IMG/VR virus record: IMGVR_UViG_3300029288_000145
Location: 1-64,000 of that record
Reading direction: 5' to 3' (one strand)
Source of the DNA: a virus
Taxonomy: Duplodnaviria; Caudoviricetes
Length of the DNA: 64,000 nucleotides
The notes beneath the pieces were generated by a model. It was not told where the DNA came from, made no database searches, and was given only the letters and a program-made list of their open reading frames with translations. The position numbers and the translations under genes were made by a program. Shown here in pieces: positions 6,971-45,566 of this stretch (position 1 is its first letter; the number at the start of each line of letters is the position of its first letter).

Positions 6971-7052
6971 ATTTTTAATTAGACTAAATAACGGGATGTT
7001 GGTCATAATCAGCTTTCTATATTTAGAAGGTGAACATACCAGCTAGTTATAG
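6971..7052 (+). repeat. attI-like recombination site, copy 1
   Basis: ATTTTTAATTAGACTAAATA..ATTTAGAAGGTGAACATACCAGCTAG|TT; gapless alignment with copies at 11557, 31023 (minus) and 45566 (minus). Confidence 0.75.
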
Positions 7053-8072
7053 CCAACCTTAAAAAACCTCGCAGCTTTCGACACAACCATTGGAAATGTC
7101 GAGTTCGCATAAGTCAAATAAAGAGGCTTGTTTGTATTCAGGCTTGTATTGGCTTTCATCAACTGCAACTTCAAAAGGTTGCTTCGCCATTTTTACAATA
7201 TCCCAAATACTTTTATTTTGTCTAAAGCAATTAATAGGCGGTTTCATTAATGGGTTGTGGCTTTTAGAGATAGGTATAAAAGCACTGTATTTTTGTTCCA
7301 TTTCAGCCCACCAGTTAATAGTTTCAGGAGTTTCATTTACTATTGTCATTAGCTTTCTAAATGATTTTTTAAAGCATAAATCACAATTCCCCTCGTATGT
7401 TTTAAGTTCCAAATCAAAAGGCTGTTCACTCCAAAATTTATTAATGTCATTTTTTCGGGTTGGAATATCAGAAACCAATGGATAAACAAACCTTTGTTTT
7501 TTCGCATCTGGCGCAACCCTATCAATTTCATCTATTCTAATCCCAATTGCAGTAAACCAATGTTTCCAGCCAATAGAACGGGCATAAGCCTGTATTGTGT
7601 ATTTTTTTAATTCTCGTGTGCAATGGGGGCTTTTTACACTTGGCATTCCGTGTTTAGCAATCATCGCTTCAAAAGGTTCACCGTTTCGGCTTGCTGTTTT
7701 GTAATCAACAATCTTGGCTCTAACTCCTTTTCTGTGTTCAGGATTGGTAATTGCTTCAACCCAAACACAATTAAAGCCAAAGTATTTATCGCACCGTTCA
7801 ACAAAATCCAATGTTTCATTTCTTTCTTTACCTGTATTGGCAAAAACAACAATAATATTGTATTTATATTTCCAATTGTCAATTATCCATTTAGTCATAA
7901 AAGCCGATGTCCTACCACCAGAAAATGAGATTAGTAACAAAGGCAGGCTATAACACGTGCTATATGCCAGTTGGGTTTTATCGGTATTTGAATATTTCTG
8001 CATCTAATTTAGTTTAAGTGTAATTTGATAGGGCGGTGCGCTGTAATCCCAACCGGACACATAGCACCATCG
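7047..8072 (+). mobile_element. Integron-like gene cassette 1 (1026 bp), cargo PAPS-reductase-family gene on the opposite strand
   Basis: Begins G|TTATAGCCAACCTT, ends with attC-like site whose inverse core AAGGCAGGCTATAAC is complementary at 13/15 positions. Confidence 0.7.
7059..8003 (-). CDS. Phosphoadenosine phosphosulfate (PAPS) reductase family protein
   Basis: SFSGGRTSAFM PP-loop, VFANTGKE, HCTRELK, GIRIDE, GNCDLCFKK, C-terminal CxxSCE. Confidence 0.85.
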   Translation of the reverse strand: MQKYSNTDKTQLAYSTCYSLPLLLISFSGGRTSAFMTKWIIDNWKYKYNIIVVFANTGKERNETLDFVERCDKYFGFNCVWVEAITNPEHRKGVRAKIVDYKTASRNGEPFEAMIAKHGMPSVKSPHCTRELKKYTIQAYARSIGWKHWFTAIGIRIDEIDRVAPDAKKQRFVYPLVSDIPTRKNDINKFWSEQPFDLELKTYEGNCDLCFKKSFRKLMTIVNETPETINWWAEMEQKYSAFIPISKSHNPLMKPPINCFRQNKSIWDIVKMAKQPFEVAVDESQYKPEYKQASLFDLCELDISNGCVESCEVF

Positions 8073-8078
8073 TTATTC
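7948..8078 (+). repeat. attC-like hairpin 1 (131 bp)
   Basis: CTATAAC-ac-GTGCTATATGCCAGTTGGG ... CCCAACCGGACACATAGCAC-catc-GTTATTC. Confidence 0.7.
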
Positions 8079-8783
8079 CACCACCTCCCATTCGTTAATA
8101 TTATCCGGAACAGCAGTCCAAAACATAGGATATATTCGCTGACTCTTTAAATCGGTCTTGACAAAAAAATCTCCCATAACCCAGCCCTGTAAATAGACGG
8201 GAATATTTTTTATTCCATACTTGGGTAAACTTGATGCACCATATATCGCCTTGGGTAGTTTTACCTTTATCTTTTGTAAATTAGCATCCTTTGGCAAGTC
8301 TTTGATTTTTTTCATGATTTTAACTTATTATTACTTGTAATATTGCTATATTTGCTTGTTTTCAAAATACTTCCCAAAAAGTTGTTCAAAAATAATTGCC
8401 TTATTTTTCATTTCAGCAACCTCCTGTTCTTTTTTCAAAATCTCTTTTTGGAACTGCTCCAATATAGTAGATTTTTTTAAAGGAATATCCCACTCGTTTA
8501 GGTTTGTAATTTCAATTCCTTCTGAGGCTGAATTGTAGTAGGCAAATTCAATACTTGCCGAACTATATTCGCTTTTTAAATAAGCAATAACAACTGTGGG
8601 TCTTTCCTTATAATTATCAAACCCAATTATATTTCCGATGTAACTTCTGTATTCATTGTACTCTTTTTTAAGTATTTTCACATAATCACCTACTTTGTAA
8701 TTATCAATTACTTTTGCGGTTCTAAGGTCAATTTCCATTTTAATGCCATTAACCTCAATAATTCTTTTGTTTTCTGTTTCCAT
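8073..8783 (-). other. Two hypothetical CDS (8073..8315; 8346..8783)
   Basis: Co-oriented ORFs; the TAA stop of 8073..8315 lies inside the GTTA crossover of attC-like 1. Confidence 0.6.
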
Positions 8784-8795
8784 TTTTTTTTAATT

Positions 8796-9242
8796 TTAGT
8801 TTATCATTTCAATTAATTGTTTTACCAATTCCTCCTGCCGGCGTAACATTTCCCGGTGTTGTTCGATCAATAATTTAAAATCCTGGATAGCACCCCTTAT
8901 TTCTTCCTGGGACTTCTCCTTGCGTATAGATTTCCCATAAGAAATTAACTCCTTCATCATTTCTCCGTACTCACTCCTGAAATCGTAATTTACTTCCCAC
9001 ATATTCCCTCCCTCAGAGAGCCAGTTGATTACCGTTGTGTGATCATATATTCTTTCACGTCCCCTGGCAAGAACACGCCCTATTTCTGATTTCGATATTC
9101 CAAAGCGGTTTAGCACTATGGCAACAACCCACTTGAATTTCATGATGGCTCCCCTCCGGGTATATACCTTCAGGTCTGTTTGTTTTATTTCCAGAGCCTT
9201 GTCTAATATAGCGTTGGCAAATTCAGCGTCTTTATTACTCAT
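8796..9242 (-). CDS. DnaA domain-IV-like HTH protein with coiled-coil tail
   Basis: RRGAIM..KWVVAIVL..FGISKSEIGRVL....DHTTVI resembles the DnaA C-terminal DNA-binding signature (DHTTV). Confidence 0.6.
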   Translation of the reverse strand: MSNKDAEFANAILDKALEIKQTDLKVYTRRGAIMKFKWVVAIVLNRFGISKSEIGRVLARGRERIYDHTTVINWLSEGGNMWEVNYDFRSEYGEMMKELISYGKSIRKEKSQEEIRGAIQDFKLLIEQHREMLRRQEELVKQLIEMIN

Positions 9243-9371
9243 TTTATTCCCTGTATTATTATCGTATCAAATGGCATCATATCGGAGTTTCCCGCCTGGG
9301 TGCAGTAATGTTCACGGCAGACTTTTATCAGTCCTCCTATAGTATCTTCTTCTGTGACAGGGATGGGTATT

Positions 9372-9902
9372 TCAACACTCATTCCCCGGTCTCCCAGGTT
9401 CATTATCGTCCGGTATGTTACCTGTAATTTCATTTTTTATAGTTATTAATCGGCTGAAAGAAGCACCTGTATTTTTCTCATATATATCTCTCATTGACTT
9501 TGTCCCGCTGTGTATAAGCCAGTGTTCTTCAGGGTCTAGTAGAATAATATTTCTTTTGTCAGTCTTGTACTGGGGAAACTTTCCTTTTGATAGCACATGG
9601 TGAAACATGTTGAAATGAACATCTGTTCTATAATATCCATCAAGGTTTCTTCCGGACAAGTAACTTACGTGGGGTCTCTCTGCCCATATTTCGTTGAATA
9701 TTTCGGCCTCGGTTTTTTCAGCCGAGGCCGGGCTGTATGGTATCATCGTTTCCATCTCCCAGCAGGCCGGGCAGATTCCCAGTTGCAGGGTGGACATAAA
9801 TCCACATTTATTGCAGATGAAATGGGTCTTTATCTTCTTCTTCCGGGTAAACGTACTTCTCTTCATATTTGCATTTTTTACATTGCCAGTATATACGGCC
9901 AA
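9372..9902 (-). CDS. Zinc-ribbon plus HNH-like nuclease
   Basis: FICNKCGFMSTLQLGICPACWE (RadA-type ribbon) followed by HHVLSKG...NIILL...EHWLIH. Confidence 0.55.
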   Translation of the reverse strand: MAVYTGNVKNANMKRSTFTRKKKIKTHFICNKCGFMSTLQLGICPACWEMETMIPYSPASAEKTEAEIFNEIWAERPHVSYLSGRNLDGYYRTDVHFNMFHHVLSKGKFPQYKTDKRNIILLDPEEHWLIHSGTKSMRDIYEKNTGASFSRLITIKNEITGNIPDDNEPGRPGNEC

Positions 9903-9943
9903 GGTCGGCCTTTACAACCATATCCGTTCCACATAAAGGGCAC

Positions 9944-10416
9944 TTATCCATTTTCAGACTCAGTTTCGGTTAAATCTTCGAGCCTTTCCAACAGAATTTT
10001 CTCCTCGTCATTTAGTACGGGAAGGTCTTTTTTTAACCCCGTCTGCCGGTATGCCTTGTTGATCTTTCTCACTACCGAGGCAAAGGTGTTTATCTCTGTG
10101 TGAACAAAGACTATGGTCGTATTGATCTTCTGCTTGACCTTCATTTGCCACGAACTTTTTTGTAGTACAAAGCCTTCATAGACTTGTGGGTTCTTTTTCC
10201 CCAGCCCAACCTTCCCCAGAGTTCGGCCATGCGGCCATACGAAACGGGCGGGTCTGTCTCCCGGCATTTTTTAAAGAACTCTACCTGCTGGGGGGTAAGA
10301 AAAATTTCGGTTGACTGTGGTGGCCTTCCCCGGTACTTGTCGAGTTCGGCCATCAATTCCTCGTATGTGATTTTATCCGTCATATTTCTTCGCATTGTGA
10401 GCGTTCTATTCTCCAC
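9944..10416 (-). other. Two small hypothetical CDS (9944..10144; 10141..10416)
   Basis: ATGA coupling at 10141-10144 argues the track ORF 9944..10267 really starts at 10144. Confidence 0.55.
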
Positions 10417-11219: not shown

Positions 11220-11229
11220 ATATTTTAAT

Positions 11230-11503: not shown

Positions 11504-11507
11504 AGTA

Positions 11508-11550
11508 CAAAGGTAATACTTGTTAATAACTTTTCCAAATTTATTTTTAT
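11508..11550 (-). promoter_or_regulatory. Promoter, extended class
   Basis: AAAAATAAATTTGG, N20 spacer, TACCTTTG; 5 nt before ATG 11503. Confidence 0.7.
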
Positions 11551-11556
11551 TATACT

Positions 11557-11638
11557 ATTTTTAATTGGACTAAACAGAACCATATTATTGATTATCAGGA
11601 GATATTATTTAGAATGTGAACATACTAGCTAGTTACCT
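11557..11638 (+). repeat. attI-like recombination site, copy 2
   Basis: ATTTTTAATTGGACTAAACA..ATTTAGAATGTGAACATACTAGCTAG|TT; gapless with copy 1. Confidence 0.75.
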
Positions 11639-12355
11639 GCCATTTAAGAAAACAGCCTCACCGACTATCGGATGAACACAATTCCTTAATATTTGAACAG
11701 GGCAATGATTTTTACCGTAGTAAATAGTTTCTTCAAAATGAATGCCTAACCAATCCATCGTTGCTTTTTTTCCTTCCATATTAGCTTTGTTTATAAAGTT
11801 TTGGGGTTGCTCAACTTTTACCTGGTTAATTTTAAAGTTTGCCCAAAATAAATGTCTTCCAATTTCGGCAGTTGGTTCAATCAATGGTTTATAATATGGT
11901 TTTACATTTTCAACAACCCATTTGCCTTTAAAAAAGTGCTGTAAAAATATAATCACTTCATAAAGTTTAAAGTCTGGATAATCGGCTACTTTGTGCCTTG
12001 TAAATTTCATCATCTTGCTGTGTTTTTGGCACGGTGGGGAAATCCAAACGAAATCAAAGTTTTCATAGTTGTTTTTTAAATATTCGTAAGCATCGCCAGT
12101 AATTACCGTATCATTCGGGTAAAGCTTTTTATAAAGTGCTGCTATTTTAGGGTCATTTTCAACAGCCGTAACCTGGCAATCTTTCCAATTTTTGCGATTA
12201 CCGCCAACCCCGGCGCAAAGATTTAAAACACGAAAAACGGCAGGTAACACGCGGTCATACTCCATGCCGGGTGTCGTGGTTTGCCAAAGTTCCTGCTGTT
12301 TATTAAGTTTTGTCATAATTTGATAGTGTTTCGTTATTAATCCGGCACGTAGCAT
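11633..12355 (-). CDS. Short DNA cytosine-C5 methyltransferase
   Basis: VLNLCAGVGG (motif I), SPPCQ (catalytic PC), VVENV (motif VI); true start probably ATG 12316 or 12265. Confidence 0.85.
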   Translation of the reverse strand: MLRAGLITKHYQIMTKLNKQQELWQTTTPGMEYDRVLPAVFRVLNLCAGVGGNRKNWKDCQVTAVENDPKIAALYKKLYPNDTVITGDAYEYLKNNYENFDFVWISPPCQKHSKMMKFTRHKVADYPDFKLYEVIIFLQHFFKGKWVVENVKPYYKPLIEPTAEIGRHLFWANFKINQVKVEQPQNFINKANMEGKKATMDWLGIHFEETIYYGKNHCPVQILRNCVHPIVGEAVFLNGR

Positions 12356-12366
12356 ACCGCAATTCG
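11633..12366 (+). mobile_element. Integron-like gene cassette 2 (734 bp), cargo C5 DNA methyltransferase on the opposite strand
   Basis: Starts G|TTACCTGCCATTT; inverse core AAACGGCAGGTAAC complementary 13/14. Confidence 0.7.
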
Positions 12367-12372
12367 TTATTC
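12242..12372 (+). repeat. attC-like hairpin 2 (131 bp)
   Basis: AGGTAAC-ac-GCGGTcATACTCCATGCCGG ... CCGGCACGTAGCATACCGC-aattc-GTTATTC, one extrahelical base. Confidence 0.7.
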
Positions 12373-12747
12373 AACCTCTAGGTACTTACACTCACATCCC
12401 ATGATAGCATCTTTTGTATCCATACAGCCAGTTACATCCTCACCCACACGATACAAAACGTTACTGTATAACTCACAGACGTTGTAGTTTTTTACCAGCT
12501 TGCCGTCTATATACTTCTCCACACAGTTGCTCGGTGCTGAACGGATGATATACCCGTACTGGTATCCGTAATCGCCATGAGTGACCTCCATGATGAGTAC
12601 TTTATTGTCACCGTATCCCGGAGTCATGGGGTCGTCCTTCTGGCAGCCAATGAGCATATAAAGAAATATACCTACTATGGCACCGATGATCATTGCCCGT
12701 AATATGTCTTTGAGCATACTACTTGGGTCTATGTTAAGATTTATCAT
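12367..12747 (-). CDS. Putative lipoprotein
   Basis: Hydrophobic stretch ending LIG-C-QKDD (lipobox); its stop overlaps the attC-like crossover. Confidence 0.55.
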   Translation of the reverse strand: MINLNIDPSSMLKDILRAMIIGAIVGIFLYMLIGCQKDDPMTPGYGDNKVLIMEVTHGDYGYQYGYIIRSAPSNCVEKYIDGKLVKNYNVCELYSNVLYRVGEDVTGCMDTKDAIMGCECKYLEVE

Positions 12748-13174: not shown

Positions 13175-13193
13175 GTTTTTTGTTTTTTAAATA

Positions 13194-13418: not shown

Positions 13419-13429
13419 TCCGGTTTATT

Positions 13430-22141: not shown

Positions 22142-22186
22142 CAAAGTTAATATATCAATTACCCTTATCCAAATTTATTTTAAAAT
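22142..22186 (-). promoter_or_regulatory. Promoter, extended class (leftward member of a divergent pair)
   Basis: ATTTTAAAATAAATTTGGATAAGGGT, N20 spacer, TAACTTTG. Confidence 0.75.
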
Positions 22187-22195
22187 TTTCTCAAC

Positions 22196-25370: not shown

Positions 25371-25415
25371 CAAATTTACAATACCCATATCCTATTTCCA
25401 AATTTATTTTCAATT
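25371..25415 (-). promoter_or_regulatory. Promoter, extended class
   Basis: AATTGAAAATAAATTTGG, N20 spacer, TAAATTTG. Confidence 0.7.
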
Positions 25416-25419
25416 TCAT

Positions 25420-28699: not shown

Positions 28700-29683
28700 A
28701 TGGAAAAAATCAAAACGTACAAAGCATTTGACAAAGAGCTTAAATGCCGTGATTTCCAATACGAAATTGGAAAAGAATACAAGCATAAAGGAAAGGTGGA
28801 AATATGTTCATCCGGTTTTCATTCATGCATAAATCCCTTTGACTGCCTGAGTTATTACCCACTAATCGAAACACGATTTTGTGAATGTGAGGTATGGGGC
28901 AAGACTGACAAAAACAATGATGATAGTAAGGTGTCTAGCGAATTTATTCTGATTGTAAAGGAATTGTCGGAAAAAGAATTTAACCTCATTTGTGTAGATT
29001 TCTTAATAAAAGAATGTGAAGAAAAGCAGTCAGGAGACGACTCGCAGCAGTCACAGTCAGGATACGCCTCGAAGCAGTCACAGTCAGGATACCGCTCGCA
29101 GCAGTCACAGTCAGGAGACGACTCGCAGCAGTCACAGTCAGGAGACGACTCGCAGCAGTCACAGTCAGGAGACCGCTCGCAGCAGTCACAGTCAGGAGAC
29201 CACTCGAAGCAGTCACAGTCAGGATACCGCTCGAAGCAGTCACAGTCAGGATACGCCTCGAAGCAGTCACAGTCAGGATACCGCTCGCAGCAGTCACAGT
29301 CAGGAGACGACTCGCAGCAGTCACAGTCAGGAGACCGCTCGCAGCAGTCACAGTCAGGAGACCACTCGAAGCAGTCACAGTCAGGATACCGCTCGAAGCA
29401 GTCACAGTCAGGATACCGCTCGAAGCAGTCACAGTCAGGAGACGACTCGCAGCAGTGTTCTTGTGGTTATGATTCTGAAATAATTGCAACAGGAGAAAAT
29501 AATGTCGCTGCCGCAATTGGTGAAAAATCCAAAATTAAAGGCATTATCGGCACCTGGATAACACTGGCAGAATATGACAACGATTCAAAATGTATCTGTG
29601 TAAAATCGGCCATCATTGATGGTAAAAAACTTCTGCCCGATACATGGTACATTCTTAAAAACAAAAAATTCACTGCAATATGA
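28700..29683 (+). CDS. DUF7666-like protein with 9-aa tandem repeats
   Basis: YKAFDKELKCRDFQYEIGKEY..GFHSC.NPFD N-domain; C-terminal VKSAIIDGKKLLPDTWY. Confidence 0.75.
   Translation: MEKIKTYKAFDKELKCRDFQYEIGKEYKHKGKVEICSSGFHSCINPFDCLSYYPLIETRFCECEVWGKTDKNNDDSKVSSEFILIVKELSEKEFNLICVDFLIKECEEKQSGDDSQQSQSGYASKQSQSGYRSQQSQSGDDSQQSQSGDDSQQSQSGDRSQQSQSGDHSKQSQSGYRSKQSQSGYASKQSQSGYRSQQSQSGDDSQQSQSGDRSQQSQSGDHSKQSQSGYRSKQSQSGYRSKQSQSGDDSQQCSCGYDSEIIATGENNVAAAIGEKSKIKGIIGTWITLAEYDNDSKCICVKSAIIDGKKLLPDTWYILKNKKFTAI
29027..29458 (+). repeat. 16 x 27-bp coding tandem repeat QSG(D/Y)(D/A/R/H)S(Q/K)QS
   Basis: cagtcagga-NNNNNNtcg-NagcagtcA units counted from the sequence. Confidence 0.95.
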
Positions 29684-30639
29684 AAAAAACAATCACAAAA
29701 TCAGACATCTTATACAAGATGTTTCAGCTACAGGCAAAAAAAACGATTGAGGGAGAAAACCGGGCAATAGAATTTTGCCGGGCTTACTCAATCGAAACAG
29801 GGGTGCCATACCACCGGATAAAAAAGTATATGGAGACCTATACAGGTAGCCCTGAGAAATTCCCTGGCTGGGTGCAGAAAATGGAAAGAAAACGCCTGAT
29901 GAAGAGAAGGGCAGCAGCAAACACGGTCACTATTTACGAAAAGCATAAATAACAAAGCTATGAAACTGGAAGTATTTGAATTTTGGCATAACCAGAAAAT
30001 AAAAGAATTTATTGTGGAATATTCCAAGGTGCCTGTAAAAACAGATGGCCGGGAATGTGAGGTGTCTCCGGGAGTTTATCAGTCAGAGGTATCCATTGAT
30101 GGGATAAAAATGTACGTGAAACATGATGATAATTTTGCCCTAGTTGAGTTTTCCAAGCATGATATTACCGCCATGTCATGCGCCATGAAGGAAATTCAGG
30201 AGGCAAAGGAATTGCAGACAATGAGTCAGGAAGAACTTAATGACTTCTACTCATGAAACAGTTTGTTCCGATCACAACCATAAGCCGTGAAGCACGGTTT
30301 TTGGCGCATCCCTGGTGTTATATCCTGAAAGAAGGGTTTAATACTTATTTTGCCCTGGGAGTAAATTACCGAGAAACGGTTAAGGTTCCGTTTCTCAAAA
30401 AGCTAATTGATTCCGATATGATCATGCCGGGAGGTCATGACAAACATGGCCGGGAGATGTATGTTCGTGGTGTCACCAAGAAAAGCGAAGAGGAAATACG
30501 GGACAGTTCGCTGGCGTATGTTTTTCATCTGCTTTGCAAATATCCTACTATTGAAAAATGGGATTATCCGGGTGCATACTTGGCGGCAAAGAGTAGGCTG
30601 GCGGAGGTAGTAAACTCAATTAGACGTAATGGTGGCTAA
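29680..30639 (+). other. Three hypothetical CDS (29680..29952; 29960..30256; 30253..30639)
   Basis: Coupled ORFs; the TAA of the last lies in the crossover of attC-like 3. Confidence 0.6.
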
Positions 30640-30765
30640 CGGTACTTGTGTAAATTTCAGTGCCGTAAAATTAGTACAAACTTTAAATTGAAAATAAAAT
30701 GAAAAATCAAGTAGAAAATTATCAACAAAGCACTGCACAGGCATTGAATTTACACAATGTTAGCA
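30634..30765 (-). repeat. attC-like hairpin 3 (132 bp)
   Basis: Plus strand GGCTAAC-ggtac-TTGTGTAAATTtCAGTGCC ... GGCATTGAATTTACACAA-t-GTTAGCA. Confidence 0.7.
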
Positions 30766-30947
30766 GTAGTGCCAAAGGTGGACTTCGTAAAATTAAAGAT
30801 GCAGAGCAACCTTGCCTACATCCTGAACATAATCCACCGATGCACATTTATTTAACAGCAGGAACTTATGAATACACCTGCCCTTCTTGTGGCAAGGTTA
30901 CGACATTCACAGTGCCATTGATTACGTTTTAGAGGCATTACTGCTAA
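30640..30947 (-). mobile_element. Integron-like gene cassette 3 (308 bp)
   Basis: GTTAGCAGTAGTGCC (30759) versus GGCATTACTGCTAAC (30934-30948): complementary 14/15. Confidence 0.7.
30699..30932 (+). CDS. Small Cys/His metal-binding protein (cassette 3 cargo)
   Basis: CLHPEHNPPMH...YTCPSCG; start codon lies inside the attC-like loop. Confidence 0.65.
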   Translation: MKNQVENYQQSTAQALNLHNVSSSAKGGLRKIKDAEQPCLHPEHNPPMHIYLTAGTYEYTCPSCGKVTTFTVPLITF

Positions 30948-31023
30948 CTAGTTGGTATAGTCACCTTCTAAATATAGTTGCGTGAATATCAGCAATGTAG
31001 TGTTATTTAGTCTAATTAAAATT
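30942..31023 (-). repeat. attI-like recombination site, copy 3
   Basis: Minus strand AATTTTAATTAGACTAAATA..ATTTAGAAGGTGACTATACCAACTAG|TT; gapless with the other copies. Confidence 0.75.
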
Positions 31024-31366
31024 ACTTCTCAATAATGGTTATTTGATACAGGGCTTCAACGATCTTTTTTTTAATCCGAAACATAGCATAAGCGGAACCG
31101 GACTTCATTCCCTTAACATCCCAGACCTCCGTATGTCCATCGGCAAAAGTTATGAGGAAATCTGCCTTATAAAATCCACAGTTAATGTCATTTATTATTA
31201 TGTCATACCTAGGCTGGCAAATGTATTCCGTAATAACCTTGCCTCGTTTAAGCAGTTCAAGTTGTGCCGCATAGTTAGCTTCCTTCTTAGAGTCATAAAT
31301 ACGTCCATTAAATTCCGTCCGTTTGGCGTGGAACTTATTTCTTTTTGTAAAAGGATGAGAAGTCAT
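31022..31366 (-). CDS. DUF1064-like PD-(D/E)xK endonuclease
   Basis: NKFHAKRT..GRIYDSKKEA...YKADF...VWDVKG. Confidence 0.8.
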   Translation of the reverse strand: MTSHPFTKRNKFHAKRTEFNGRIYDSKKEANYAAQLELLKRGKVITEYICQPRYDIIINDINCGFYKADFLITFADGHTEVWDVKGMKSGSAYAMFRIKKKIVEALYQITIIEK

Positions 31367-34300
31367 AACTATTATCGTTTGGTGCGGTCATTTGTTGCAT
31401 GTATCTGTTATAAGCAGACTTGGCTCCCAGTAGTGCTGCCGATACTGCTGATACCAGGTCACAGTCCTTTAAATACTCAATACCCCTCATTCTCTTACAC
31501 TCTTCTAAAAAGTCATCATGCTTTATCCGGGCGCTGTGATATTCGATATAATCACGCACAGAATTAAACCTGTCCTGGTTGGCGGCGGCACCTGCCCAGA
31601 AACCGGGTTTTTCAACAATCTTTCCAGTAACATTATCAATGTCGTGTAATAAATATCCACCAAAGCCAAATTCAATAAAATCCCTCCAGAGTGTTTTGAT
31701 ATTGTTCTCCAAGTACATCATAGAGCCAAAGTACACACACATTTTTATCATGTCCCAGGAATATTCACTGCCGGCAGGTCGGTAACGATAGGTACATACG
31801 ATATTATATGTCTCCCATTCTGATACCTCTTTGTTGTCCGGGTCAATATTCATATCTCTTAGACGAAGTACGGCACCACCACCATCGGACATTCTTTCAC
31901 GAGATTCACGTAGCTGTGCCTCTGTCTTTGTTGAAAACTCAAAGGGGTCTCCACCGGCCACATACTTTCCGGGAAAGGCGGGATAGTAAATGCCATCTTT
32001 GAGAACTCTCTTACTCCTGATCTCTTCAGGTGGCATGTGTGAAAGCAAAAAGCGTCCATCGGGATTTTCTTTAAACACAACTTTGCCGGTTTGGTCTCCT
32101 CCCTCAAACTCGAAATTACCCCTTATCGGCTTATCCTTACCCGTCAGGCGATATAATTCTGCTAACTGGTCATTTATCTTGACTGTGTTAAATCCGATTG
32201 ATGTGGAGGCTCCTTGGAAGCACTCGGCATATGTTGTTGGAAAGAGTTCAACAAACCTGTGATATTGCCTCATGGCTGTCGGCGTGCCTTTTGATAGCAA
32301 TATCTGTCTCTGGGATGAAATAAAATCTTTGGCACCATAATTCTTTTTGATAAAGGCCGCCTGATCTGGAGTCGGATTGCTTATAACTGACAGTCCGTGC
32401 TTGTCTATAAACCCCTTCATACCGTCATAGGCAGGTATGAAAAGCGTTCTTAGTCCTGATGCTGTCTGCCCGGTAAGCTCGTTGATCTGCTCAAACCGGG
32501 ACTGTTCACACAAACGCCTGAAGTTGGATATTGTTACGGCATTAGCCTCCTCTACCGTTGTCGGGTGGATGCTGAAACCGACAATCTCATCTCCTATTGA
32601 CTGACATTCTTTGACGACATTCCACCGGTCAAATATGTCCTCTTGACTTTCCCTGGTGTTATGAACAACGGTGTAATCTGACAATAAAAACCTTCTATTT
32701 CCATCAATAATAAAACCATAATAGTTGCCAACACCCATTAATTCAACACGAAATCCAGTGTGTTTAGGGTTTCTGGAATTTTTGTTTTTATTTTCAATAA
32801 TTGGCATTTTTTTTCGTGGAATGAGACAATGTATTCTGTGCATATCAAATCCATAAATGCGTACTCGGTAAACGGGACAAGTATAAATTGGCTTGTTTGG
32901 CCTTTTTAGAGTGGCTATTTTTGCGTGAATAGTACTACCAAACCCACAACTAAGTGCCAAATCTTTTACCTGTTCAGCTAATATTGGTAATTTTAGGGTT
33001 ATTTCGTATACGCATTTATTTTTAGTGGTACATCTGTGACCATCCGTGTCTATTATGCCAGCCAATAATTTAAGTCGATTGTCTATACTATCAACTAAAT
33101 AATCTTTTATTATGTGTTTATTACGGATTAAATTATTACTACTTAAAAATCTTTGAATATAATTTATTTGGCGACCATGTGAAATAAATTTATATCCCTT
33201 ATAGTATCCAACATACTTTGTATAATTTGATATAAGATTCTCATTTAAACCAAGTTTGGTTGCAGCATCTTTTCTACTATGATACCGATTTATAAAATTA
33301 TTATTTCTATCATAACAATCAAATATAGCGGTTCTTTTCTTCGATAACCGATAAGTTATTCCATCTTCTTTTATAACCACCTTATATCCACCCTCTTTTG
33401 CGTAGTTATAAATGTAATTTATTACTTCTTTATCCACATTAGTTATGGCTGGTTCAGCAGAAGCACCATCTCCTAGCCATAAACCATACAAATATGGGTC
33501 TATTATGTGTTGTTTTTCAGGATAATCTACCCCAACACTATATAATACTAATCCACGCTTTTGATATTTTGACAATTTTAAATAATCTAATACGGTTAAT
33601 TCTATTATTTGTCCTTTTTTATATTTATAAGAATAAAATTGAGATTCATCACTTATCTTACATACGAGAATATGATTACTATTACACACCCAAGGGTCGC
33701 CTTTATTTGGTATTATCTTATATAGATCGTCCTGTCCACATACGGTAGATAATACATTTCGTTCTATTGAATCATCTCCCATAAGCAAATCGCCAGGAAG
33801 AATGTCTTGAACCATTTTAACGTCTCCATTATACATTCTTATAGGCGTATCCTTACCAAAACAGTTTCCTTCTTCATCACTCAGTATGTATTTTAGCTTT
33901 TTACCGTTATAATAAGACTTGTCAGAGGTCTGGGCGTAGTCGAATTTTGTTTTAAGTTCCTTCTTTTTATACAGGATAATCTTACCGTCCTTATTTCGTT
34001 CTGCCGGGGCGTTGCAGCTTATATTTTCCTTGGGATTGGTAGAACTATCCACCATTGGCTTAAAGTAAAACGGTATCTTCTGAAAGGCCGGAACAAGTTT
34101 ATCGGAAAATTGTGTCTTGGCATTGGCAGAGGTGTAAGATTGTAGCCCTATAAGAGCTGCTATAGACCGGGTGCCGATCTCCAGACCTACAGATATTGAC
34201 TTGTGCGTGGCACCATCCCTCCTGTGCTTGGGATAACAGAAGCCATAACATATCAACCTGCCGTAATCTTTAAGTTTTACGTCTCCATTATCATCTACAG

Positions 34301-34856
34301 CAACTTTTTTTGGCCGTCCCTTGTCGTCCCATTCGGAATATACGGGTGCTTTTGTTGTTGTGGCACAATCCCTGGCAAAGAGGAACCACCGTCTGTCCCT
34401 ATCCCTGTATTCGGCGGCACCTATATCCAGGTTGTAAACGGCTAAATACCAGTAATGCCAGCCATCCAGAAATGTTGGCTTGCCGTTATTAAAAAACCAG
34501 TATCCGTATAGCCTGTAATGCCATTGACGTTTTATCCATAATATCTCATCCTTATAATATTTCTGCCGGGCTTGCAGTTCGTTCCACACATCATCGGCAA
34601 AGGTATGTTTGTCAATAAGTTTGAGTATCTTTTTTGGTGTCGGTGGAATACGCCAGTATTGTTCATCACAGGGTTCGCCAAATCCATCTATAAGATGCCA
34701 TACAGGAGGTTCCGGCAGGTTTATACGCTGGGCGGTTAAGTCCGGGTCATTGTCATTAATGTAAAAATGGGTGTCGGCATCCTTGTAGGTAATGAGAATA
34801 TCCGGCTTTATAAGGGGTGAACTCTTATAATATTCAAGTGCCTGTAGTCTCTTCAT
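31335..34856 (-). CDS. terL: Terminase large subunit interrupted by an intein
   Basis: KHRRDG Walker A-like, YILSDEEG Walker B, C-terminal RNase-H-like GGDP/SDGG/ENN; 771 aa after removing the intein. Confidence 0.85.
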   Translation of the reverse strand: MKRLQALEYYKSSPLIKPDILITYKDADTHFYINDNDPDLTAQRINLPEPPVWHLIDGFGEPCDEQYWRIPPTPKKILKLIDKHTFADDVWNELQARQKYYKDEILWIKRQWHYRLYGYWFFNNGKPTFLDGWHYWYLAVYNLDIGAAEYRDRDRRWFLFARDCATTTKAPVYSEWDDKGRPKKVAVDDNGDVKLKDYGRLICYGFCYPKHRRDGATHKSISVGLEIGTRSIAALIGLQSYTSANAKTQFSDKLVPAFQKIPFYFKPMVDSSTNPKENISCNAPAERNKDGKIILYKKKELKTKFDYAQTSDKSYYNGKKLKYILSDEEGNCFGKDTPIRMYNGDVKMVQDILPGDLLMGDDSIERNVLSTVCGQDDLYKIIPNKGDPWVCNSNHILVCKISDESQFYSYKYKKGQIIELTVLDYLKLSKYQKRGLVLYSVGVDYPEKQHIIDPYLYGLWLGDGASAEPAITNVDKEVINYIYNYAKEGGYKVVIKEDGITYRLSKKRTAIFDCYDRNNNFINRYHSRKDAATKLGLNENLISNYTKYVGYYKGYKFISHGRQINYIQRFLSSNNLIRNKHIIKDYLVDSIDNRLKLLAGIIDTDGHRCTTKNKCVYEITLKLPILAEQVKDLALSCGFGSTIHAKIATLKRPNKPIYTCPVYRVRIYGFDMHRIHCLIPRKKMPIIENKNKNSRNPKHTGFRVELMGVGNYYGFIIDGNRRFLLSDYTVVHNTRESQEDIFDRWNVVKECQSIGDEIVGFSIHPTTVEEANAVTISNFRRLCEQSRFEQINELTGQTASGLRTLFIPAYDGMKGFIDKHGLSVISNPTPDQAAFIKKNYGAKDFISSQRQILLSKGTPTAMRQYHRFVELFPTTYAECFQGASTSIGFNTVKINDQLAELYRLTGKDKPIRGNFEFEGGDQTGKVVFKENPDGRFLLSHMPPEEIRSKRVLKDGIYYPAFPGKYVAGGDPFEFSTKTEAQLRESRERMSDGGGAVLRLRDMNIDPDNKEVSEWETYNIVCTYRYRPAGSEYSWDMIKMCVYFGSMMYLENNIKTLWRDFIEFGFGGYLLHDIDNVTGKIVEKPGFWAGAAANQDRFNSVRDYIEYHSARIKHDDFLEECKRMRGIEYLKDCDLVSAVSAALLGAKSAYNRYMQQMTAPNDNSYDFSSFYKKK
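32658..33863 (-). mobile_element. Intein (402 aa) with LAGLIDADG homing endonuclease
   Basis: Block A CFGKDTPIRMYNG, blocks YGLWLGDG and LAGIIDTDG, terminal VVHN followed by Thr; visibly more AT-rich than its flanks. Confidence 0.9.
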
Positions 34857-37420: not shown

Positions 37421-37461
37421 CTTGGAATTTGTGGTCAAATAACTTATATTTGTAAGAAAAA

Positions 37462-38050
37462 ATGTTAAGCCAAGAGTTCATAAATGATTGTTTTGTACGG
37501 GATGGCGAACCGTATCCGTGTCGTGGTGATATATATGTTGAATACGAAGTAAAACATTCCGTTCCAAGTATAGTATCATATGACATTACTTATATAAATG
37601 AAGAGTCGGATACACTTGAATTTCCAAGGGTGAATGATATTATCCTGCAACTGGGCAAATCTCGCAGAATAGTGTCGGCCACATACGACATTGATACAAA
37701 AACCCTCATATTGAACTTTAATGAGAAAATATAAGGAGTTGTTTAAGAAGATTGAGGCCGAACCTCATCGTGCATTTACGTATATAATGTCAATATTTGA
37801 CGGTATATACAATGATATGATGGAAGCCTGTGGCCGGGAGGAGAATCCAAATGCAGTCATGGAAATCGTAAATATGCACAATAAGAAATACAAAAGAATC
37901 TCAGTGGCAATAAACAAACATATTGAACAACGCTATGGTATAAAGAATTTACTCCGTAGTGAGGCGTTCCTGGACACTATAAAGTCCAATATTTTAATGG
38001 ACAAACAAGCGTTCCATGTGTATAACTGCTACTGGGGATTATCGAACTAA
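37462..38050 (+). other. Two hypothetical CDS (37462..37734; 37721..38050)
   Basis: Preceded by a TATATTTG -7 box near 37445-37452. Confidence 0.55.
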
Positions 38051-38051
38051 T

Positions 38052-38804
38052 ATGGAAGATCAAAAGAAGTATGTAGGGTACATCCGTGTATCAACAAAAA
38101 AACAGGGTGACAGTGGTGCCGGACTTGAAAGCCAGGAGGCTATTATTAAGGCTAAGGCCGGGGATAACCTGGTGAAAATATTTCGAGAGATCGAATCCAC
38201 ACGCAAGAGCAACAAGCGGTTTGAATTTTACAAGGCACTCAATATGTGTGTTGAAAACGGCTATGTACTTTGCATAGCCAAGATTGACCGTGCTATACGT
38301 GATATGGACTTGCTTATGTCTCTGGAGAAGGCGGTATCTGCCGGCAACCTCGAATTTTTTATCTGCAACCGACCCTGGGCAGATAAATATACTATCAGAA
38401 ATGACGTGAATAATGCCGAGCAGGAACGCCAGTGGATTTCTGAACGTACCAAGGCCGGGCTTGCTGTGGTTAAACTCAGGGGAACTAAAACCGGAAAGCC
38501 ATATATGCCTCCGAGGGGATTTCGTGAGGACAGAGCACGTCTTGAACGGGCTATTATTGCCAGCAGGGAGGCTAAGACAATTAAGAGACTGTGCCATCCG
38601 GAAATGATCAAGAGCCGTGCATTTATGATGGAACTACATAACTCCGGAAAGAGTGGGTGGGCTATTGCCAATGAACTTAATAAGAATGGGTTTAAAACCT
38701 CCACCGGCGGCCAGTGGCGACAGGGTTCTGTCTATACCACACTACAATTACCCTTTGATGAGGGTATTGTAGAAAAATATAGGGACGTTTACCAATGGCT
38801 ATAA
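38052..38804 (+). CDS. Small serine recombinase (resolvase/invertase type) with C-terminal HTH
   Basis: YIRVSTKKQ..SG.GLESQ, AKIDR, ISERTKAGL, IANELNKNGFKT..GGQW; likely start 38052. Confidence 0.9.
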   Translation: MEDQKKYVGYIRVSTKKQGDSGAGLESQEAIIKAKAGDNLVKIFREIESTRKSNKRFEFYKALNMCVENGYVLCIAKIDRAIRDMDLLMSLEKAVSAGNLEFFICNRPWADKYTIRNDVNNAEQERQWISERTKAGLAVVKLRGTKTGKPYMPPRGFREDRARLERAIIASREAKTIKRLCHPEMIKSRAFMMELHNSGKSGWAIANELNKNGFKTSTGGQWRQGSVYTTLQLPFDEGIVEKYRDVYQWL

Positions 38805-39609: not shown

Positions 39610-39628
39610 AAACTAAATAATACGGATA

Positions 39629-40108
39629 TTAAGTATTATTACCGTAACTCTGTGCACGGCTCTGTGACCACTCGTTGTTGAGTGTCTTTAACCTACTCTG
39701 TATCATGCTTACCAGCCTGTCAATGTCTGATTTTAAACTCCTGTAGTAATTAAATGTATATTTATTCAACAGTTCGATGCGTTTATTGTCTTTAAGTTGC
39801 TGGCGAATATACATCTTTCGTTTAGCCTCAGTCATTTCCGTAAGTTCCAGGAACAATCTCGCCTCTTCATCTCCATTATCCTGCTTACACTGATCGGCAA
39901 TTAGTCCAAGGGAGGAAACTAAGGCTCCTAAGTTGATATTATTTATAGACAACCGCTCACCTATCTGCCCAAGTTCTCCCGGAGTTATGGTGTCAAAGTT
40001 GTCACGCACAAAATCAGCATCTTTCCGTATAGAAACGAGAAATGTATGCTTGGGATGTGAGTATATGCCGGTGATCTGATCAACGGCCATCTTATCTATT
40101 CCTTCCAT
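39629..40108 (-). CDS. Helical hypothetical protein, end of capsid operon
   Basis: 159 aa, coiled-coil character. Confidence 0.55.
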   Translation of the reverse strand: MEGIDKMAVDQITGIYSHPKHTFLVSIRKDADFVRDNFDTITPGELGQIGERLSINNINLGALVSSLGLIADQCKQDNGDEEARLFLELTEMTEAKRKMYIRQQLKDNKRIELLNKYTFNYYRSLKSDIDRLVSMIQSRLKTLNNEWSQSRAQSYGNNT

Positions 40109-40779
40109 TCGGCCATTATTCGGTTTCGCTGAACAAGGTACATTTTATCAATAGCATCGGTGCCGTGTATGGTGTCATTTAAATATAAAGAACTGTTTTT
40201 CCTCAACACCACACCATCACCAACGGCAACGTCAAAGTGATCTCCCTCCCAGGGTTCGTACTTGTATTCCTCAATCATACAGCCTTTATAGGCTACATTT
40301 CCCCAGATATAACTGTCCCTATTTTTTAACGTAATTGGGACATCCAGGGTAGTGTCAATTTTAACCTCTGTAGGCTTAATTAGAACCCATCCATTTAACG
40401 GATACACCTCTTTATTCCGGATGCGTACCTGTAAATCCCAGTACCAGATAATAATGTATGTGGAATCACCATCTATTATGTACGATGTAGCCTTGTTGAC
40501 GGCTGTATCGAGTCCAAGTGAAGTAAGTCCGGCCATGTAGTCGAAATATACCTGGTCACCCTCCTGTGCTTCCATAGGTACTTTCCAGGGCATAGTTTTG
40601 CTCTGGGCATCTCTGGTGTAAACCAGTTTACCTGATTTTATAAATACGCCTTTTACGGGTGCGTGTTGGCCGGGGTTGTATGATTTGTCAACATACAGGC
40701 CACTCTTTGTGGTGTCATTCATATTGTCAATGCGAACAAGTACTTTATTCGGCATTAACTTAATGCTATTTATATCCAT
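40096..40779 (-). CDS. Tandem double GroES-like co-chaperonin
   Basis: IKLMPNKVLVR...TTKSGLYV and VYPLNGWVLIKP...VAVGDGV; start reassigned to ATG 40779 right after the upstream stop. Confidence 0.75.
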   Translation of the reverse strand: MDINSIKLMPNKVLVRIDNMNDTTKSGLYVDKSYNPGQHAPVKGVFIKSGKLVYTRDAQSKTMPWKVPMEAQEGDQVYFDYMAGLTSLGLDTAVNKATSYIIDGDSTYIIIWYWDLQVRIRNKEVYPLNGWVLIKPTEVKIDTTLDVPITLKNRDSYIWGNVAYKGCMIEEYKYEPWEGDHFDVAVGDGVVLRKNSSLYLNDTIHGTDAIDKMYLVQRNRIMAEWKE

Positions 40780-40780
40780 A

Positions 40781-41065
40781 TCAGAATGGTAAGTCGTCTC
40801 CGCCGGCCTGGGGTGGTATAGGTTCTTCTTCTTCTTTTGGTTTTGGTTTGTACGTGTCCAGGACAACGCTGTGTGTGTATCCGTATTCAGATACCTTCTT
40901 CATAGGACTGACAATGATGTTGATGTACTCCTTGCCACGTTTATCCTTCCACTTGTATTCCTGTATGTCATTTTCACTGAGGTCTGTCAGGCATACTGAA
41001 ACGACAATGAATTTCCCGAAACGGCCTTCTTTTTCCTTGGCCGAACCACAATAAATTTTTTCCAT
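40781..41065 (-). CDS. Small OB-fold/SSB-like protein
   Basis: 94 aa beta-rich core with acidic tail ending GGDDLPF. Confidence 0.5.
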   Translation of the reverse strand: MEKIYCGSAKEKEGRFGKFIVVSVCLTDLSENDIQEYKWKDKRGKEYINIIVSPMKKVSEYGYTHSVVLDTYKPKPKEEEEPIPPQAGGDDLPF

Positions 41066-41067
41066 AG

Positions 41068-42018: not shown

Positions 42019-42038
42019 AATTACTCCTTTTATTTAAA

Positions 42039-42068
42039 GAAAAGGGGAGTTGTTATACCCCCCTTTTC
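42039..42068 (-). terminator. Rho-independent terminator or attenuator after the capsid gene
   Basis: GAAAAGGGG...CCCCTTTTC stem followed by TTT on the minus strand. Confidence 0.65.
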
Positions 42069-42084
42069 GGGGTTTAATTTTCTC

Positions 42085-43515: not shown

Positions 43516-43549
43516 TTTGTTTTTGTATTAAAAGTTTTTAAAAAGTTGT

Positions 43550-44704
43550 TTATTGTGCTGCTCTTCCCGTTGAAATGTAATGGTTTAACCTTGCTTCTTC
43601 TTTTTCAGCAGGGGTAAGTTCTTTTTCGCCCTCGTCCTTTTTAACAGCACTCGGAGGGGCACTAGGATTGTAATATTTTTTCGTTGTCTCCTCAACGGTA
43701 TCCTTGTAAACCTTTTCTAAGGCTGTGGCAATGATAGTGTTGAAGTTACGTGTAATGTAAAGATTTTTTGCGAAGTTGTTTAACAACTGAATATTGTCTT
43801 TTGTGGGTTTTAGCTCGTTCTGAACGGCATAGTTGGCCACGAGTGACAGTATCTCCTTGTTTTCCTTTTCCTCTATCGGTATGTCATAACTCACTTCCAG
43901 GTCGTTCTGCTCGTCAATCTGGAACTTTGTTGAACCGGCAAAGGTTTTAAAGGCGGATTCTACCTCAGTTTTAAACGGGGCTGACCAATCTTTCTTTAGG
44001 TTGTCAATATCAGTTTCACGCTGCTTGCTGACATCCTCAATCTTGGGTTTTTCAATCCCTTCAAATCTTTTCATTAACTTCTTATACTCTGTCTTGGCAT
44101 CCAACTCGAATTGCAGGGAGTCACGCTTGTACTCCTTGCTGTCGGTGTCAGGCTCATCATCGAACAAAAAGGGATACTTTACTTTAATGTATTCCTCTGC
44201 CTTGTCCTTAAATTCAGGATTCTCTAACGTAAGTCCGAGTTTCATGATTGCAAGCGAGTCTGGTTCTCCTAGTGCGAGTTTCTTGTATAAATCGTACTGA
44301 TCGGGGGTCTCTTTCTTAATGACCGCCAGTTTGTAGAGAACCTCATCCTCAAAAGGATTGAAGGCTTTTGCTTTTTCCAATTCAGAGGTGAGGCTTTCCC
44401 TGGCCTGTCGCAAGCCATTGTACTCTTTCTCTAAATCTTCTAATGATTTTATATTATCGCCAAATCTGGAATAATCAACTTGTTCCGGGACGGCAGGTGT
44501 CTCCGGTGGTTTAGGTGGTTCTGCATCCGTTATAGGATTTTTTACCTCCGGTTCTGTCGTAGGAGGGGGTGGGGGTGGTTCGGGCTTCTGCCCTGGTTCA
44601 TAAAATTCAGTACCTTCAGGATAACCCATTTTGAATAGGTCTTGCTTTCCAAGAAATTCCTCTGGAATTTCCACACTCATTTTTTCTGTATTTGTTTCTG
44701 CCAT
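43550..44704 (-). CDS. Capsid scaffolding-type protein
   Basis: Acidic, Pro-rich N-terminus (PEPPPPPPT), coiled coils; immediately upstream of the capsid gene. Confidence 0.6.
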   Translation of the reverse strand: MAETNTEKMSVEIPEEFLGKQDLFKMGYPEGTEFYEPGQKPEPPPPPPTTEPEVKNPITDAEPPKPPETPAVPEQVDYSRFGDNIKSLEDLEKEYNGLRQARESLTSELEKAKAFNPFEDEVLYKLAVIKKETPDQYDLYKKLALGEPDSLAIMKLGLTLENPEFKDKAEEYIKVKYPFLFDDEPDTDSKEYKRDSLQFELDAKTEYKKLMKRFEGIEKPKIEDVSKQRETDIDNLKKDWSAPFKTEVESAFKTFAGSTKFQIDEQNDLEVSYDIPIEEKENKEILSLVANYAVQNELKPTKDNIQLLNNFAKNLYITRNFNTIIATALEKVYKDTVEETTKKYYNPSAPPSAVKKDEGEKELTPAEKEEARLNHYISTGRAAQ

Positions 44705-44747
44705 TTAACATTATTTCCGTGCTTTGCACACGTTTTAATTTCTTTTA

Positions 44748-44779
44748 CAAATTTAATTTATATAAAATAAAATACCAAA
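44748..44779 (-). promoter_or_regulatory. Capsid operon promoter
   Basis: TTTG-N20-TAAATTTG. Confidence 0.7.
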
Positions 44780-44787
44780 CTGACCCT

Positions 44788-44833
44788 TTTTGAAAATAAA
44801 TTTGGATTTATGGAGGTGTATTTTGTATCTTTG
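44788..44833 (+). promoter_or_regulatory. Promoter, extended class
   Basis: TTTTGAAAATAAATTTGG, N21 spacer, TATCTTTG. Confidence 0.7.
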
Positions 44834-44855
44834 CTTGTTATTAAGACTAAATATT

Positions 44856-45058
44856 ATGAGTGGACTATGGCTTTTTATTTCGGGAGTAGTGATTGGTGCT
44901 TTACTGTGTTTAATTTGCATGGCTGTTTTTTTTCCGGACATTGAAGAATAAAAATAAATATTATGGGTGTTTACAGATGGTGCGAAACCGGCGATTGGTT
45001 GCTATGTGGAAAAGTGAAACAAGGAATAGACGGTGAATTTATTGAGTGGTTCACTTAA
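44856..45058 (+). other. Two 31-aa micro-ORFs (44856..44951 single TM; about 44963..45058)
   Basis: Translated by hand: MSGLWLFISGVVIGALLCLICMAVFFPDIEE and MGVYRWCETGDW...EWFT. Confidence 0.45.
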
Positions 45059-45062
45059 TGGT

Positions 45063-45153
45063 ACATAACGGTTGAGGCTAAAAGCAGTTGCCTTGAATAC
45101 TGCTTGAAATTACGCACAGACTATCTAGCAATTGCTTTTAGCCTGTGTTATAA
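45063..45153 (-). repeat. attC-like hairpin 4 (91 bp)
   Basis: Plus strand ACATAAC-ggttg-AGGCTAAAAGCAGTTGC ... GCAATTGCTTTTAGCCT-gt-GTTATAA. Confidence 0.7.
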
Positions 45154-45490
45154 ACTGTAAAAATTATGGGCGAATATGCAGATATGGCAATAGAAAGTGG
45201 TTTGTCAAATTATATTGACTTTAAAACCCATAGCGGAATTTATGAGAATGATGATTATTTAGACGAGTGGGAGGGTGAAGACATACCATTCATTCGTGCT
45301 GAAAAGTGGGATAGTTTTGGATTCCTTGAAATAAAAAGAGAAACAAAAAAGGCTTGGTTACTCATAATGAATGGTAAGGCTGAGCGTTGGTTTCCAAAAA
45401 AGCATTGTAAGATTAAAGGCAATATAATTTTACTTCCAATATGGCTACGCAATAAAATGGCAGGATGGGAATAATTTTTATTGTTTATAA
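45069..45490 (-). mobile_element. Integron-like gene cassette 4 (422 bp), cargo ORF 45166..45474
   Basis: GTTATAAACTGTAAAAATT (45147) versus AATTTTTATTGTTTATAAC (45473-45491): complementary 17/19. Confidence 0.7.
45166..45474 (+). CDS. Hypothetical protein (cassette 4 cargo)
   Basis: 102 aa, MGEYADMAIE...ETKKAWLL...WFPKKHC..LPIWL. Confidence 0.65.
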   Translation: MGEYADMAIESGLSNYIDFKTHSGIYENDDYLDEWEGEDIPFIRAEKWDSFGFLEIKRETKKAWLLIMNGKAERWFPKKHCKIKGNIILLPIWLRNKMAGWE

Positions 45491-45566
45491 CTAGCTGGTA
45501 TGTTCACATTCTAAATAGTCTCTACTGATAATCAACAACATCCCACTATTTAGTCTAATTAAAAAT
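45485..45566 (-). repeat. attI-like recombination site, copy 4
   Basis: Minus strand ATTTTTAATTAGACTAAATA..ATTTAGAATGTGAACATACCAGCTAG|TT. Confidence 0.75.

Follow-up and report, generated by a model that had tools for sequence, protein, structure and literature searches.

A 64,000-nucleotide stretch of phage DNA (Duplodnaviria; Caudoviricetes), which we will call the window, makes up the first 64 kb of the 76,930-bp IMG/VR record IMGVR_UViG_3300029288_000145. Between positions 6971 and 45566 the window contains, at four dispersed loci, what appear to be integron-style gene cassettes, each ending at a copy of an 82-bp element. The order of parts, read in the direction of transcription, is the same at each locus: the end of a resident gene, TAAC, a hairpin resembling the attC recombination sites of integrons, GTTA, a short core sequence x, a cargo gene, the reverse complement of x, TAAC and the 82-bp element. 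From crossover point to crossover point the cassettes measure 1026, 734, 308 and 422 bp. The hairpins are 125, 125, 126 and 85 nt long from TAAC to GTTA, or 131, 131, 132 and 91 nt if 3 nt are added on each side. Each site holds one cassette and lies at the 3' end of a transcription unit, just as the original prediction for this DNA had stated, and the hairpin loci are about 4.6, 18.4 and 14.4 kb apart.

The first two loci are on the minus strand. At locus 1, the outer TAAC of the hairpin (7951-8075) contains the stop codon of a resident gene (8073-8315). The cassette (7047-8072) carries a gene for a PAPS-reductase-like protein of 314 aa (7059-8003), and its end cores, GTTATAGCCAACCTT (7046-7060) and AAGGCAGGCTATAAC (7939-7953), are complementary at 13 of 15 positions. 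The first copy of the 82-bp element, counted from its TAAC, occupies 6968-7049 and is followed by a promoter-like TAAATTTGG box on the same strand. At locus 2, where the outer TAAC of the hairpin (12245-12369) holds the stop codon of the resident gene 12367-12747, the cassette spans 11633-12366 and its end cores match at 13 of 14 positions. Its cargo is a 240-aa open reading frame (ORF; 11633-12355) for a short C5 DNA cytosine methyltransferase, about 40 N-terminal residues of which are encoded by the hairpin and are missing from homologues. The second 82-bp copy (11554-11635) is again followed by a minus-strand TAAATTTGG box.

The other two loci are on the plus strand. At locus 3 the hairpin (30637-30762) has the stop codon of the resident gene 30253-30639 in its outer TAAC, the cassette (30640-30947; end cores complementary at 14 of 15 positions) encodes a 77-aa zinc-ribbon-like protein (30699-30932), and the 82-bp copy (30945-31026) abuts the end of a convergent DUF1064 gene (31022-31366). 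Locus 4 has a short form of the hairpin (45066-45150), a cassette (45069-45490) with end cores complementary at 17 of 19 positions, and a cargo gene (45166-45474) for a protein of 102 aa with no family match. Its 82-bp copy (45488-45569) is followed by a GC-rich inverted repeat and a convergent gene (45638-46222). The cargo start codon lies in the hairpin loop at three loci, 1 and 3 among them, and directly after the inner core at locus 4. Each 82-bp copy has the same direction as the gene immediately upstream of it.

A side observation concerns hairpin 2. Two Logan contigs from SRR8542065 meet there: one ends at 12245, exactly at the last base of the inner GTTA, and the other begins at 12269, with an overlap of 25 nt in the 3' arm of the hairpin. 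The break may reflect heterogeneity in the population or a gap in coverage, and we do not use it as evidence.

The complementarity of the end cores was read directly from the sequence. The resident gene end beyond the hairpin has no complementarity to the start core, which bears out what had been claimed for these loci. The start core fits the inner core but not what lies past the hairpin; the explanation would be that the two ends of a cassette pair when it is a circle. We ran a custom finder for the pattern TAAC-arm...arm'-GTTA-x...rc(x)-TAAC, rc(x) being the reverse complement of x, on the whole genome. It returns exactly four loci in 76.9 kb, each ending on the TAAC that opens an 82-bp copy, with the predicted architecture and with the predicted cassette and hairpin lengths. 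It returned no match in 40 order-2 Markov shuffles and two in 20 under relaxed settings. Further closed cassettes that lack hairpins were not found in the genome above the level of shuffles.

The hairpins belong to a family. Relatives reached by way of the primase-helicase carry the same cassette units in arrays. Hairpin 1 is plainly homologous to a hairpin in L096, a 44-kb phage genome that is complete by its direct terminal repeats, where it stands before an N6-methyltransferase gene; the second cassette protein of L096 has no detectable relationship to cargo 2. Scanning species-representative genomes for the pattern turned up more than 120 loci, most of them in Bacteroidota and Ignavibacteria. 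The most frequent length of the hairpins there is 126 nt, and many stand in arrays with the split-core signature. We aligned 10 phage and 22 bacterial hairpins (32 sequences) and folded them with RNAalifold, which predicts 24 pairs. The original prediction had named a lack of covariation across homologues as grounds for rejecting it; compensatory changes are present in 18 of the 24 pairs. Of the cells, 93% are paired, compared with 67% for shuffled alignments. Covariation scores 0.646, where shuffles give 0.165 (none of 500 as high) and sliding the partners gives 0.08-0.16. The common plan combines an invariant TAAC/GTTA box with a conserved G-T pair, an unpaired spacer of 4 nt on one side and 1 nt on the other, and a stem of about 19-20 bp around a variable loop.

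A covariance model, R1, was built from this alignment. Covariance models had been proposed as a check on the prediction. In the phage genome R1 finds the four hairpins and nothing else, with 84.4, 79.2, 63.7 and 45.5 bits for hairpins 1 to 4. Hairpin 4 (E 4e-9; fold z-score -3.8) was outside the training set. In the Polaribacter phage P12002L the model has no match at E of 1 or below; the hairpins of that phage are short forms of 49-58 nt, detected by the pattern finder only. With the covariation and the recognition of the untrained hairpin, the claim of integron-style cassettes with attC-like folded sites is supported. On the TAACG strand, stem G-T pairs occur at columns 5/128, 24/112 and 20/115 of the alignment (A4) in 30, 27 and 14 of the 32 sequences. 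Read from the opposite strand they would become A-C mismatches, a hint that one of the two strands folds better.

In bacteria and in phages the hairpins are linked to a tyrosine recombinase. In Pedobacter glucosidilyticus a gene for such an enzyme is directly followed by ...TTTACTAG|TTATAGCC (the bar marks the crossover point, here in the form ...CTAG|TTA) and then by a cassette array. The P. glucosidilyticus protein was used to find 30 bacterial recombinase loci, and 18 of them have an R1 match within 1.5 kb downstream of the recombinase, always with the same polarity. Relatives of the recombinase are present in 384 IMG/VR contigs; among 80 fetched viral recombinase loci, 60 have hairpin arrays, which lie just upstream of the recombinase gene and on the same strand. 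The linked recombinase scores best against NF040815 (XerA; 208 bits). Against TIGR02249, the integron integrase model, it scores 191 bits where the cut-off is 265, in a two-piece match that skips model positions of about 182-240, and the nearest solved structures are those of archaeal XerA (4a8e and 5hxy). By these comparisons the hairpin-linked enzymes are a XerA-like family that does not have the IntI-specific insertion, not IntI. The recombinases are accompanied by attI-like boxes: those of bacteria (23 sites) close with ...ATATAAAnnAG|TTA, and those of phages (33-34 sites) open with TAAC|TATTATATAT. We note the layout in the phages that encode the Xer-like recombinase (L278-L357): the last cassette is followed by the strongly conserved TAAC|TATTATATAT box (34 distinct sites), about 55 nt further on is the start codon of the recombinase, and the array runs in the same direction as the recombinase gene. 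The bacterial order is the reverse, with the recombinase ahead of the array.

The phage considered here has no such enzyme. An ENA contig (L020) of 76,880 bp, 99.99% identical to the IMG/VR record, spans the ends of the record (window position 1 and 76930). It follows that the phage has a circularly permuted genome whose full length of about 76.9 kb is in hand, despite a CheckV completeness estimate of 66%. Neither the window, as had been claimed, nor the rest of the 76,930-bp record has a match to the tyrosine recombinase family PF00589. What the window does contain, and what has to be added to that claim, is a serine recombinase of 262 aa (38016-38804, plus strand), to which we return below. 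Because the genome is complete and lacks a tyrosine recombinase, the enzyme would have to be supplied in trans, and the most economical reading is that it comes from a chromosomal platform of the host or from a co-infecting phage. The original prediction had placed an integron-type integrase elsewhere in the phage or in the host. The phage can be struck from that statement and so can IntI, the family being XerA-like; a source in the host still stands. The relatives of the phage helicase and the promoter-like TAAATTTGG boxes point to a host among the Bacteroidota.

Cargo genes had been described as antisense to the polarity of the site. This is correct, and it is general to phage arrays. A window-based count of ORF orientations was noisy, so we counted instead whole cassettes between consecutive hairpins with TAACG...TGTTA as the reference strand, the remaining ones being unclear. 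Viral arrays have 42 sense and 2 antisense cassettes, bacterial arrays 0 and 22. Inverted gene orientation is thus a property of phage cassettes as a class. Measured against the attI position, hairpins of Pedobacter and of this phage share one polarity (site, G|TTA, cassette, x'TAAC-A...C-G|TTA), and in the phage the cargo is transcribed towards the element at the attI position, with no intI present. Since the gene of a phage cassette is on the TAACG...TGTTA strand, read-through from the upstream phage operon could express it. That phage cassettes are built opposite to bacterial ones, with the start codon within the recombination hairpin, can be tested.

The cargo has close homologues elsewhere. 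Proteins homologous to cargo 1 are 90, 84 and 83% identical to it and those homologous to the methyltransferase of cassette 2 are 73-80% identical, whereas the best match of the phage helicase has 54% identity. The homologues lack the first 20-40 residues, which are encoded here by the hairpin arm and the core. ENA scaffold L273 has cargo 1 at 85% nucleotide identity between the inner core and the end core (window 7964-7054). In that scaffold the hairpin before it is closer to hairpin 2, what comes after it is a second cassette and not the 82-bp element, and the end cores have changed together: TAGCC and GGCTA in the phage are CCAGC and GCTGG in L273. The predicted shared pool of cassettes is supported by this homologous cassette with compensatory changes in its cores and by the cargo proteins at 73-90% against 54% for the helicase. 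At the end of the L273 array (1070-1428) TAAC is followed by ATCTTATATCCACC, which in reverse complement, GGTGGATATAAGATG|TTA, looks similar to the attI-like box at the crossover in bacteria.

We consider it moderately probable that each of the four loci is one mobile cassette of an integron-like system, inserted site-specifically at sites of about 90 bp that belong to the phage, by an enzyme acting in trans. The cassette would comprise a hairpin recombination site and one gene. In the excised circle its two ends would pair and make the hairpin longer by 13-17 bp. A site-specific recombinase would insert it at (C)TAG|TTA, where a site peculiar to the phage has its edge; this site would consist of the 82-bp element and about 10 partly conserved bases across the crossover and be kept in four copies at operon ends. 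If this is right, an unoccupied site would read resident end-TAAC-TAGCTGGTATG... The enzyme would most likely be the XerA-like recombinase of a host cassette platform or of a co-infecting phage. The cargo would be expressed by read-through of the upstream phage operon, from a start codon in or just after the hairpin.

The part of this proposal that concerns the 82-bp element is drawn from geometry, and we would put the chance that the element is a recombination target at a little over one half. Its four copies are gapless and 73-85% identical, there is no further copy in the 76,930-bp record, and the chance expectation for its two conserved boxes is 0.05-0.3 matches. It is at the attI position, its conserved part lying to one flank of the crossover and the cassette being inserted at the element's edge. 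All four cassettes are inserted at the same nucleotide, TAAC|TAG. Beyond the crossover about 10 bases are partly conserved (GGTGGAATAAC, GGTTGAATAAC, GGTGGCTAAC and GGTACATAAC), a pattern that would result from the splitting, four times over, of an older site some 90 bp long. The element has no stable fold (z-scores of -1.8 to +0.1), no covariation and three conserved sequence blocks, and contains inverted boxes around a central palindrome, CTAAATA...TGATAATCA...TATTTAG. In these respects it seems to behave like a double-stranded, protein-binding site. With the attI-like boxes of the recombinase platforms it has only CTAG|TTA and a TAT in common. When position weight matrices (PWMs) of those boxes include the shared core, the 82-bp ends rank 5-13 and 19-129 of 154,000.

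A number of observations count against the proposal. Without the shared TAAC/AGTTA core, the PWM ranks of the 82-bp ends fall to about 1400 and above 1300, which is no significant similarity. Two exact patterns for the element gave 0 matches and 11 chance matches in IMG/VR, and neither JGI metagenomes (one pattern) nor 2.1 Mb of fetched loci (nhmmer) contained it. Because the element turned up in no second genome, neither an empty site nor one with other contents could be seen, and as all four copies are occupied, the element could be linked to cassettes in some way other than as their target. Three other close homologues of cargo 1 are in phage operons with no hairpin, so the gene also spreads by other routes. 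No recombination of this hairpin family has been demonstrated with any enzyme; P12002L_attC1, the single published example of such a hairpin, is the only one of six phage sites that failed with IntI1 (PMC9892861).

The lack of similarity to recombinase-adjacent sites agrees with an alternative in which the cassettes are real and the 82-bp element is a regulatory or protein-binding module of operon ends. The cassettes would then have landed beside it by the low-specificity insertion into secondary sites that integrons are known for and to which a GTT is enough, or been kept there because insertion at the end of an operon does no harm. The positions of the element suit this, since all copies are at the ends of transcription units, with TAAATTTGG boxes after copies 1 and 2 and convergent genes after copies 3 and 4. 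Integron integrases can also insert cassettes outside att sites, according to a preprint (bioRxiv 10.1101/2022.09.11.507474). The module explanation does not account easily for four independent cassettes at an identical nucleotide with partly conserved bases on the far side. It also has to face the hundreds of other GTT sites in the genome, at none of which there is a cassette. We regard it as unlikely.

Less likely again, though a complete genome without a recombinase agrees with it, is that the cassettes are fossils. They would have been inserted in an ancestor that carried or met the enzyme and would by now be ordinary, fixed genes of the phage, no longer mobile. Two independent assemblies of the phage, 99.99% identical, have the same content at loci 1 and 2, and each pair of cores has 1-2 mismatches. 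Yet the family model still recognises every one of the hairpins, at 45-84 bits. The end cores are 87-93% complementary in spite of the quick divergence between homologous cassettes, which suggests recent insertion or continued selection. We infer that recombination activity may be continuing.

The serine recombinase at 38016-38804 could itself act on the 82-bp dyad elements and have inserted the cargo. The protein has a Resolvase domain, an intact catalytic motif (YIRVST, including RVST), only the start of a Recombinase domain, and 'DNA invertase' as its best PHROG match, and the element does contain inverted boxes. We think this very improbable. Serine recombinases cross over at the centre of their sites; here the element is intact, and the cassette adjoins it. 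In bacteria and phages alike it is tyrosine recombinases that accompany the hairpin family, and no serine recombinase was found in two other complete cassette-bearing phages, G005 and P12002L. The protein, moreover, has neither the zinc ribbon nor the coiled coil of integrating serine recombinases. The phage has no obvious invertible segment.

In phages of the T4 type, mobile regulatory cassettes known as PeSLs consist of short repeats flanking accessory genes, for which shuffling through homology between the repeats on both sides has been proposed. Shuffling of this kind, or single-strand transposition as in IS200/IS605 (HUH) elements, would fit hairpin sites, a fixed tetranucleotide beside the insertion and a repeated 82-bp element as homology, but is hardly credible for these loci: the phage genome has no match to the Y1 transposase family (PF01797), each unit has one hairpin and not subterminal hairpins at both ends, the repeat is on one side only with a hairpin and cassette-specific cores on the other, and co-varying end cores together with linkage to a recombinase fit circular cassettes.

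If site-specific insertion of mobile cassettes is the right reading, an extension of it can be suggested more tentatively, with somewhat less than an even chance of being true. The phage would have a distributed capture platform: four private sites, a recombinase borrowed from the host or a co-infecting phage, and a pool of phage-specific inverted cassettes that are expressed only in phages. It would then be a recombinase-less, multi-site, phage-adapted counterpart of an integron, and the cassette economies of phage and host would be kept apart by orientation alone. That a genome with no tyrosine recombinase can house cassettes at a dedicated site repeated in several scattered places is open to test. 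The cargo (a DNA methyltransferase, a PAPS-reductase-like enzyme and two small proteins) suggests a trade in DNA-modification and counter-defence genes among phages, and the whole points to an undescribed route by which phages collect genes. Should the 82-bp site prove to be a sufficient target, it could serve as a compact landing pad for engineering.

The remainder of the genome is that of a phage, with virion proteins, a primase-helicase, a CHAP lysin, a YqaJ exonuclease and a tRNA-Met, the last being the sole match in an Rfam scan at gathering thresholds. The large terminase (31335-34856, minus strand; 1173 aa) has an intein with Hint and LAGLIDADG matches. No close relatives of the phage were found with the terminase as single query or in INPHARED by blastn, and a check for identical proteins led either to no match or back to the same phage, present in two other assemblies. 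At 6912-6957, 22142-22187, 25371-25416 and 11530-11556, upstream of minus-strand operons, there is a box that reads ...AAAATAAATTTGG... on the minus strand. It fits TAnnTTTG, the -7 box of Bacteroidota promoters. Within the gene 28700-29683 there is a tandem array (28946-29564) of a 27-nt unit, in at least 16 overlapping in-register copies that are 62-95% identical. A minus-strand gene at 40096-40866 encodes a 256-aa protein with a Cpn10 (GroES-like co-chaperonin) domain.

How does this system compare with known ones? The length range of attC sites is 57-141 bp, and the palindromes found here lie within it. With classical integrons it shares one-gene cassettes, a folded imperfect palindrome of 85-126 nt, AAC/GTT R boxes, an unpaired spacer and a varying paired stem. 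It also shares the G|TT crossover, the pairing of the first cassette bases with the cassette's own inner core and, if the 82-bp element is the target, a double-stranded target with conserved sequence and the crossover at its edge. It differs from them in that the linked recombinase is XerA-like and is absent from the phage, in that the gene is on the strand opposite to the polarity of the site, and in having four dispersed single-cassette sites where integrons have one array, read-through where they have a Pc promoter, and a start codon inside the hairpin. What is new is the set of four scattered putative landing sites; the 82-bp site has so far been seen in this phage alone.

Clusters of attC sites lacking an integrase (CALIN) have been reported on phages by Qi et al. 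2023 (PMC9892861), who regarded them as attC sites of the usual integron kind and assayed them with IntI1. Their attC-like sites, like ours, are beside methyltransferase genes in virulent phages without an integrase. P12002L_attC1, which we located at 30056-30008 of L265 on the minus strand, upstream of a methyltransferase gene, is a short TAACG...TGTTA hairpin. That study has no landing site, no rule of inverted orientation and no Xer-like partner, unlike the system described here. IntegronFinder 2 finds the Bacteroidetes almost devoid of integrons (PMC9024848). Each locus of our phage has one hairpin and the loci are kilobases apart, so they would fall below the two-site CALIN threshold of that program (PMC9024848). 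Genomic insertion outside attI (bioRxiv 10.1101/2022.09.11.507474) resembles the present case in that cassettes are found away from the recombinase platform; the sites described there need little beyond GTT, whereas here an extended element has been used four times at the same nucleotide.

The closest likeness is to the Xer-type cassette arrays of Bacteroidota chromosomes and phages, of which we found no description in the literature searched. These have the same hairpin family, split cores, DNA methyltransferase cargo and polarity relative to the attI position. They usually adjoin a recombinase, unlike the four dispersed single cassettes of this phage, which has no recombinase and has a different, 82-bp site. 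Integrons, the standard example of gene capture in bacteria, are regarded as dependent on IntI and as almost wholly lacking in the Bacteroidota (PMC9024848; bioRxiv 10.1101/2024.07.02.601686). The data point instead to a parallel system with a simpler, Xer-like enzyme, common in Bacteroidota and their phages.

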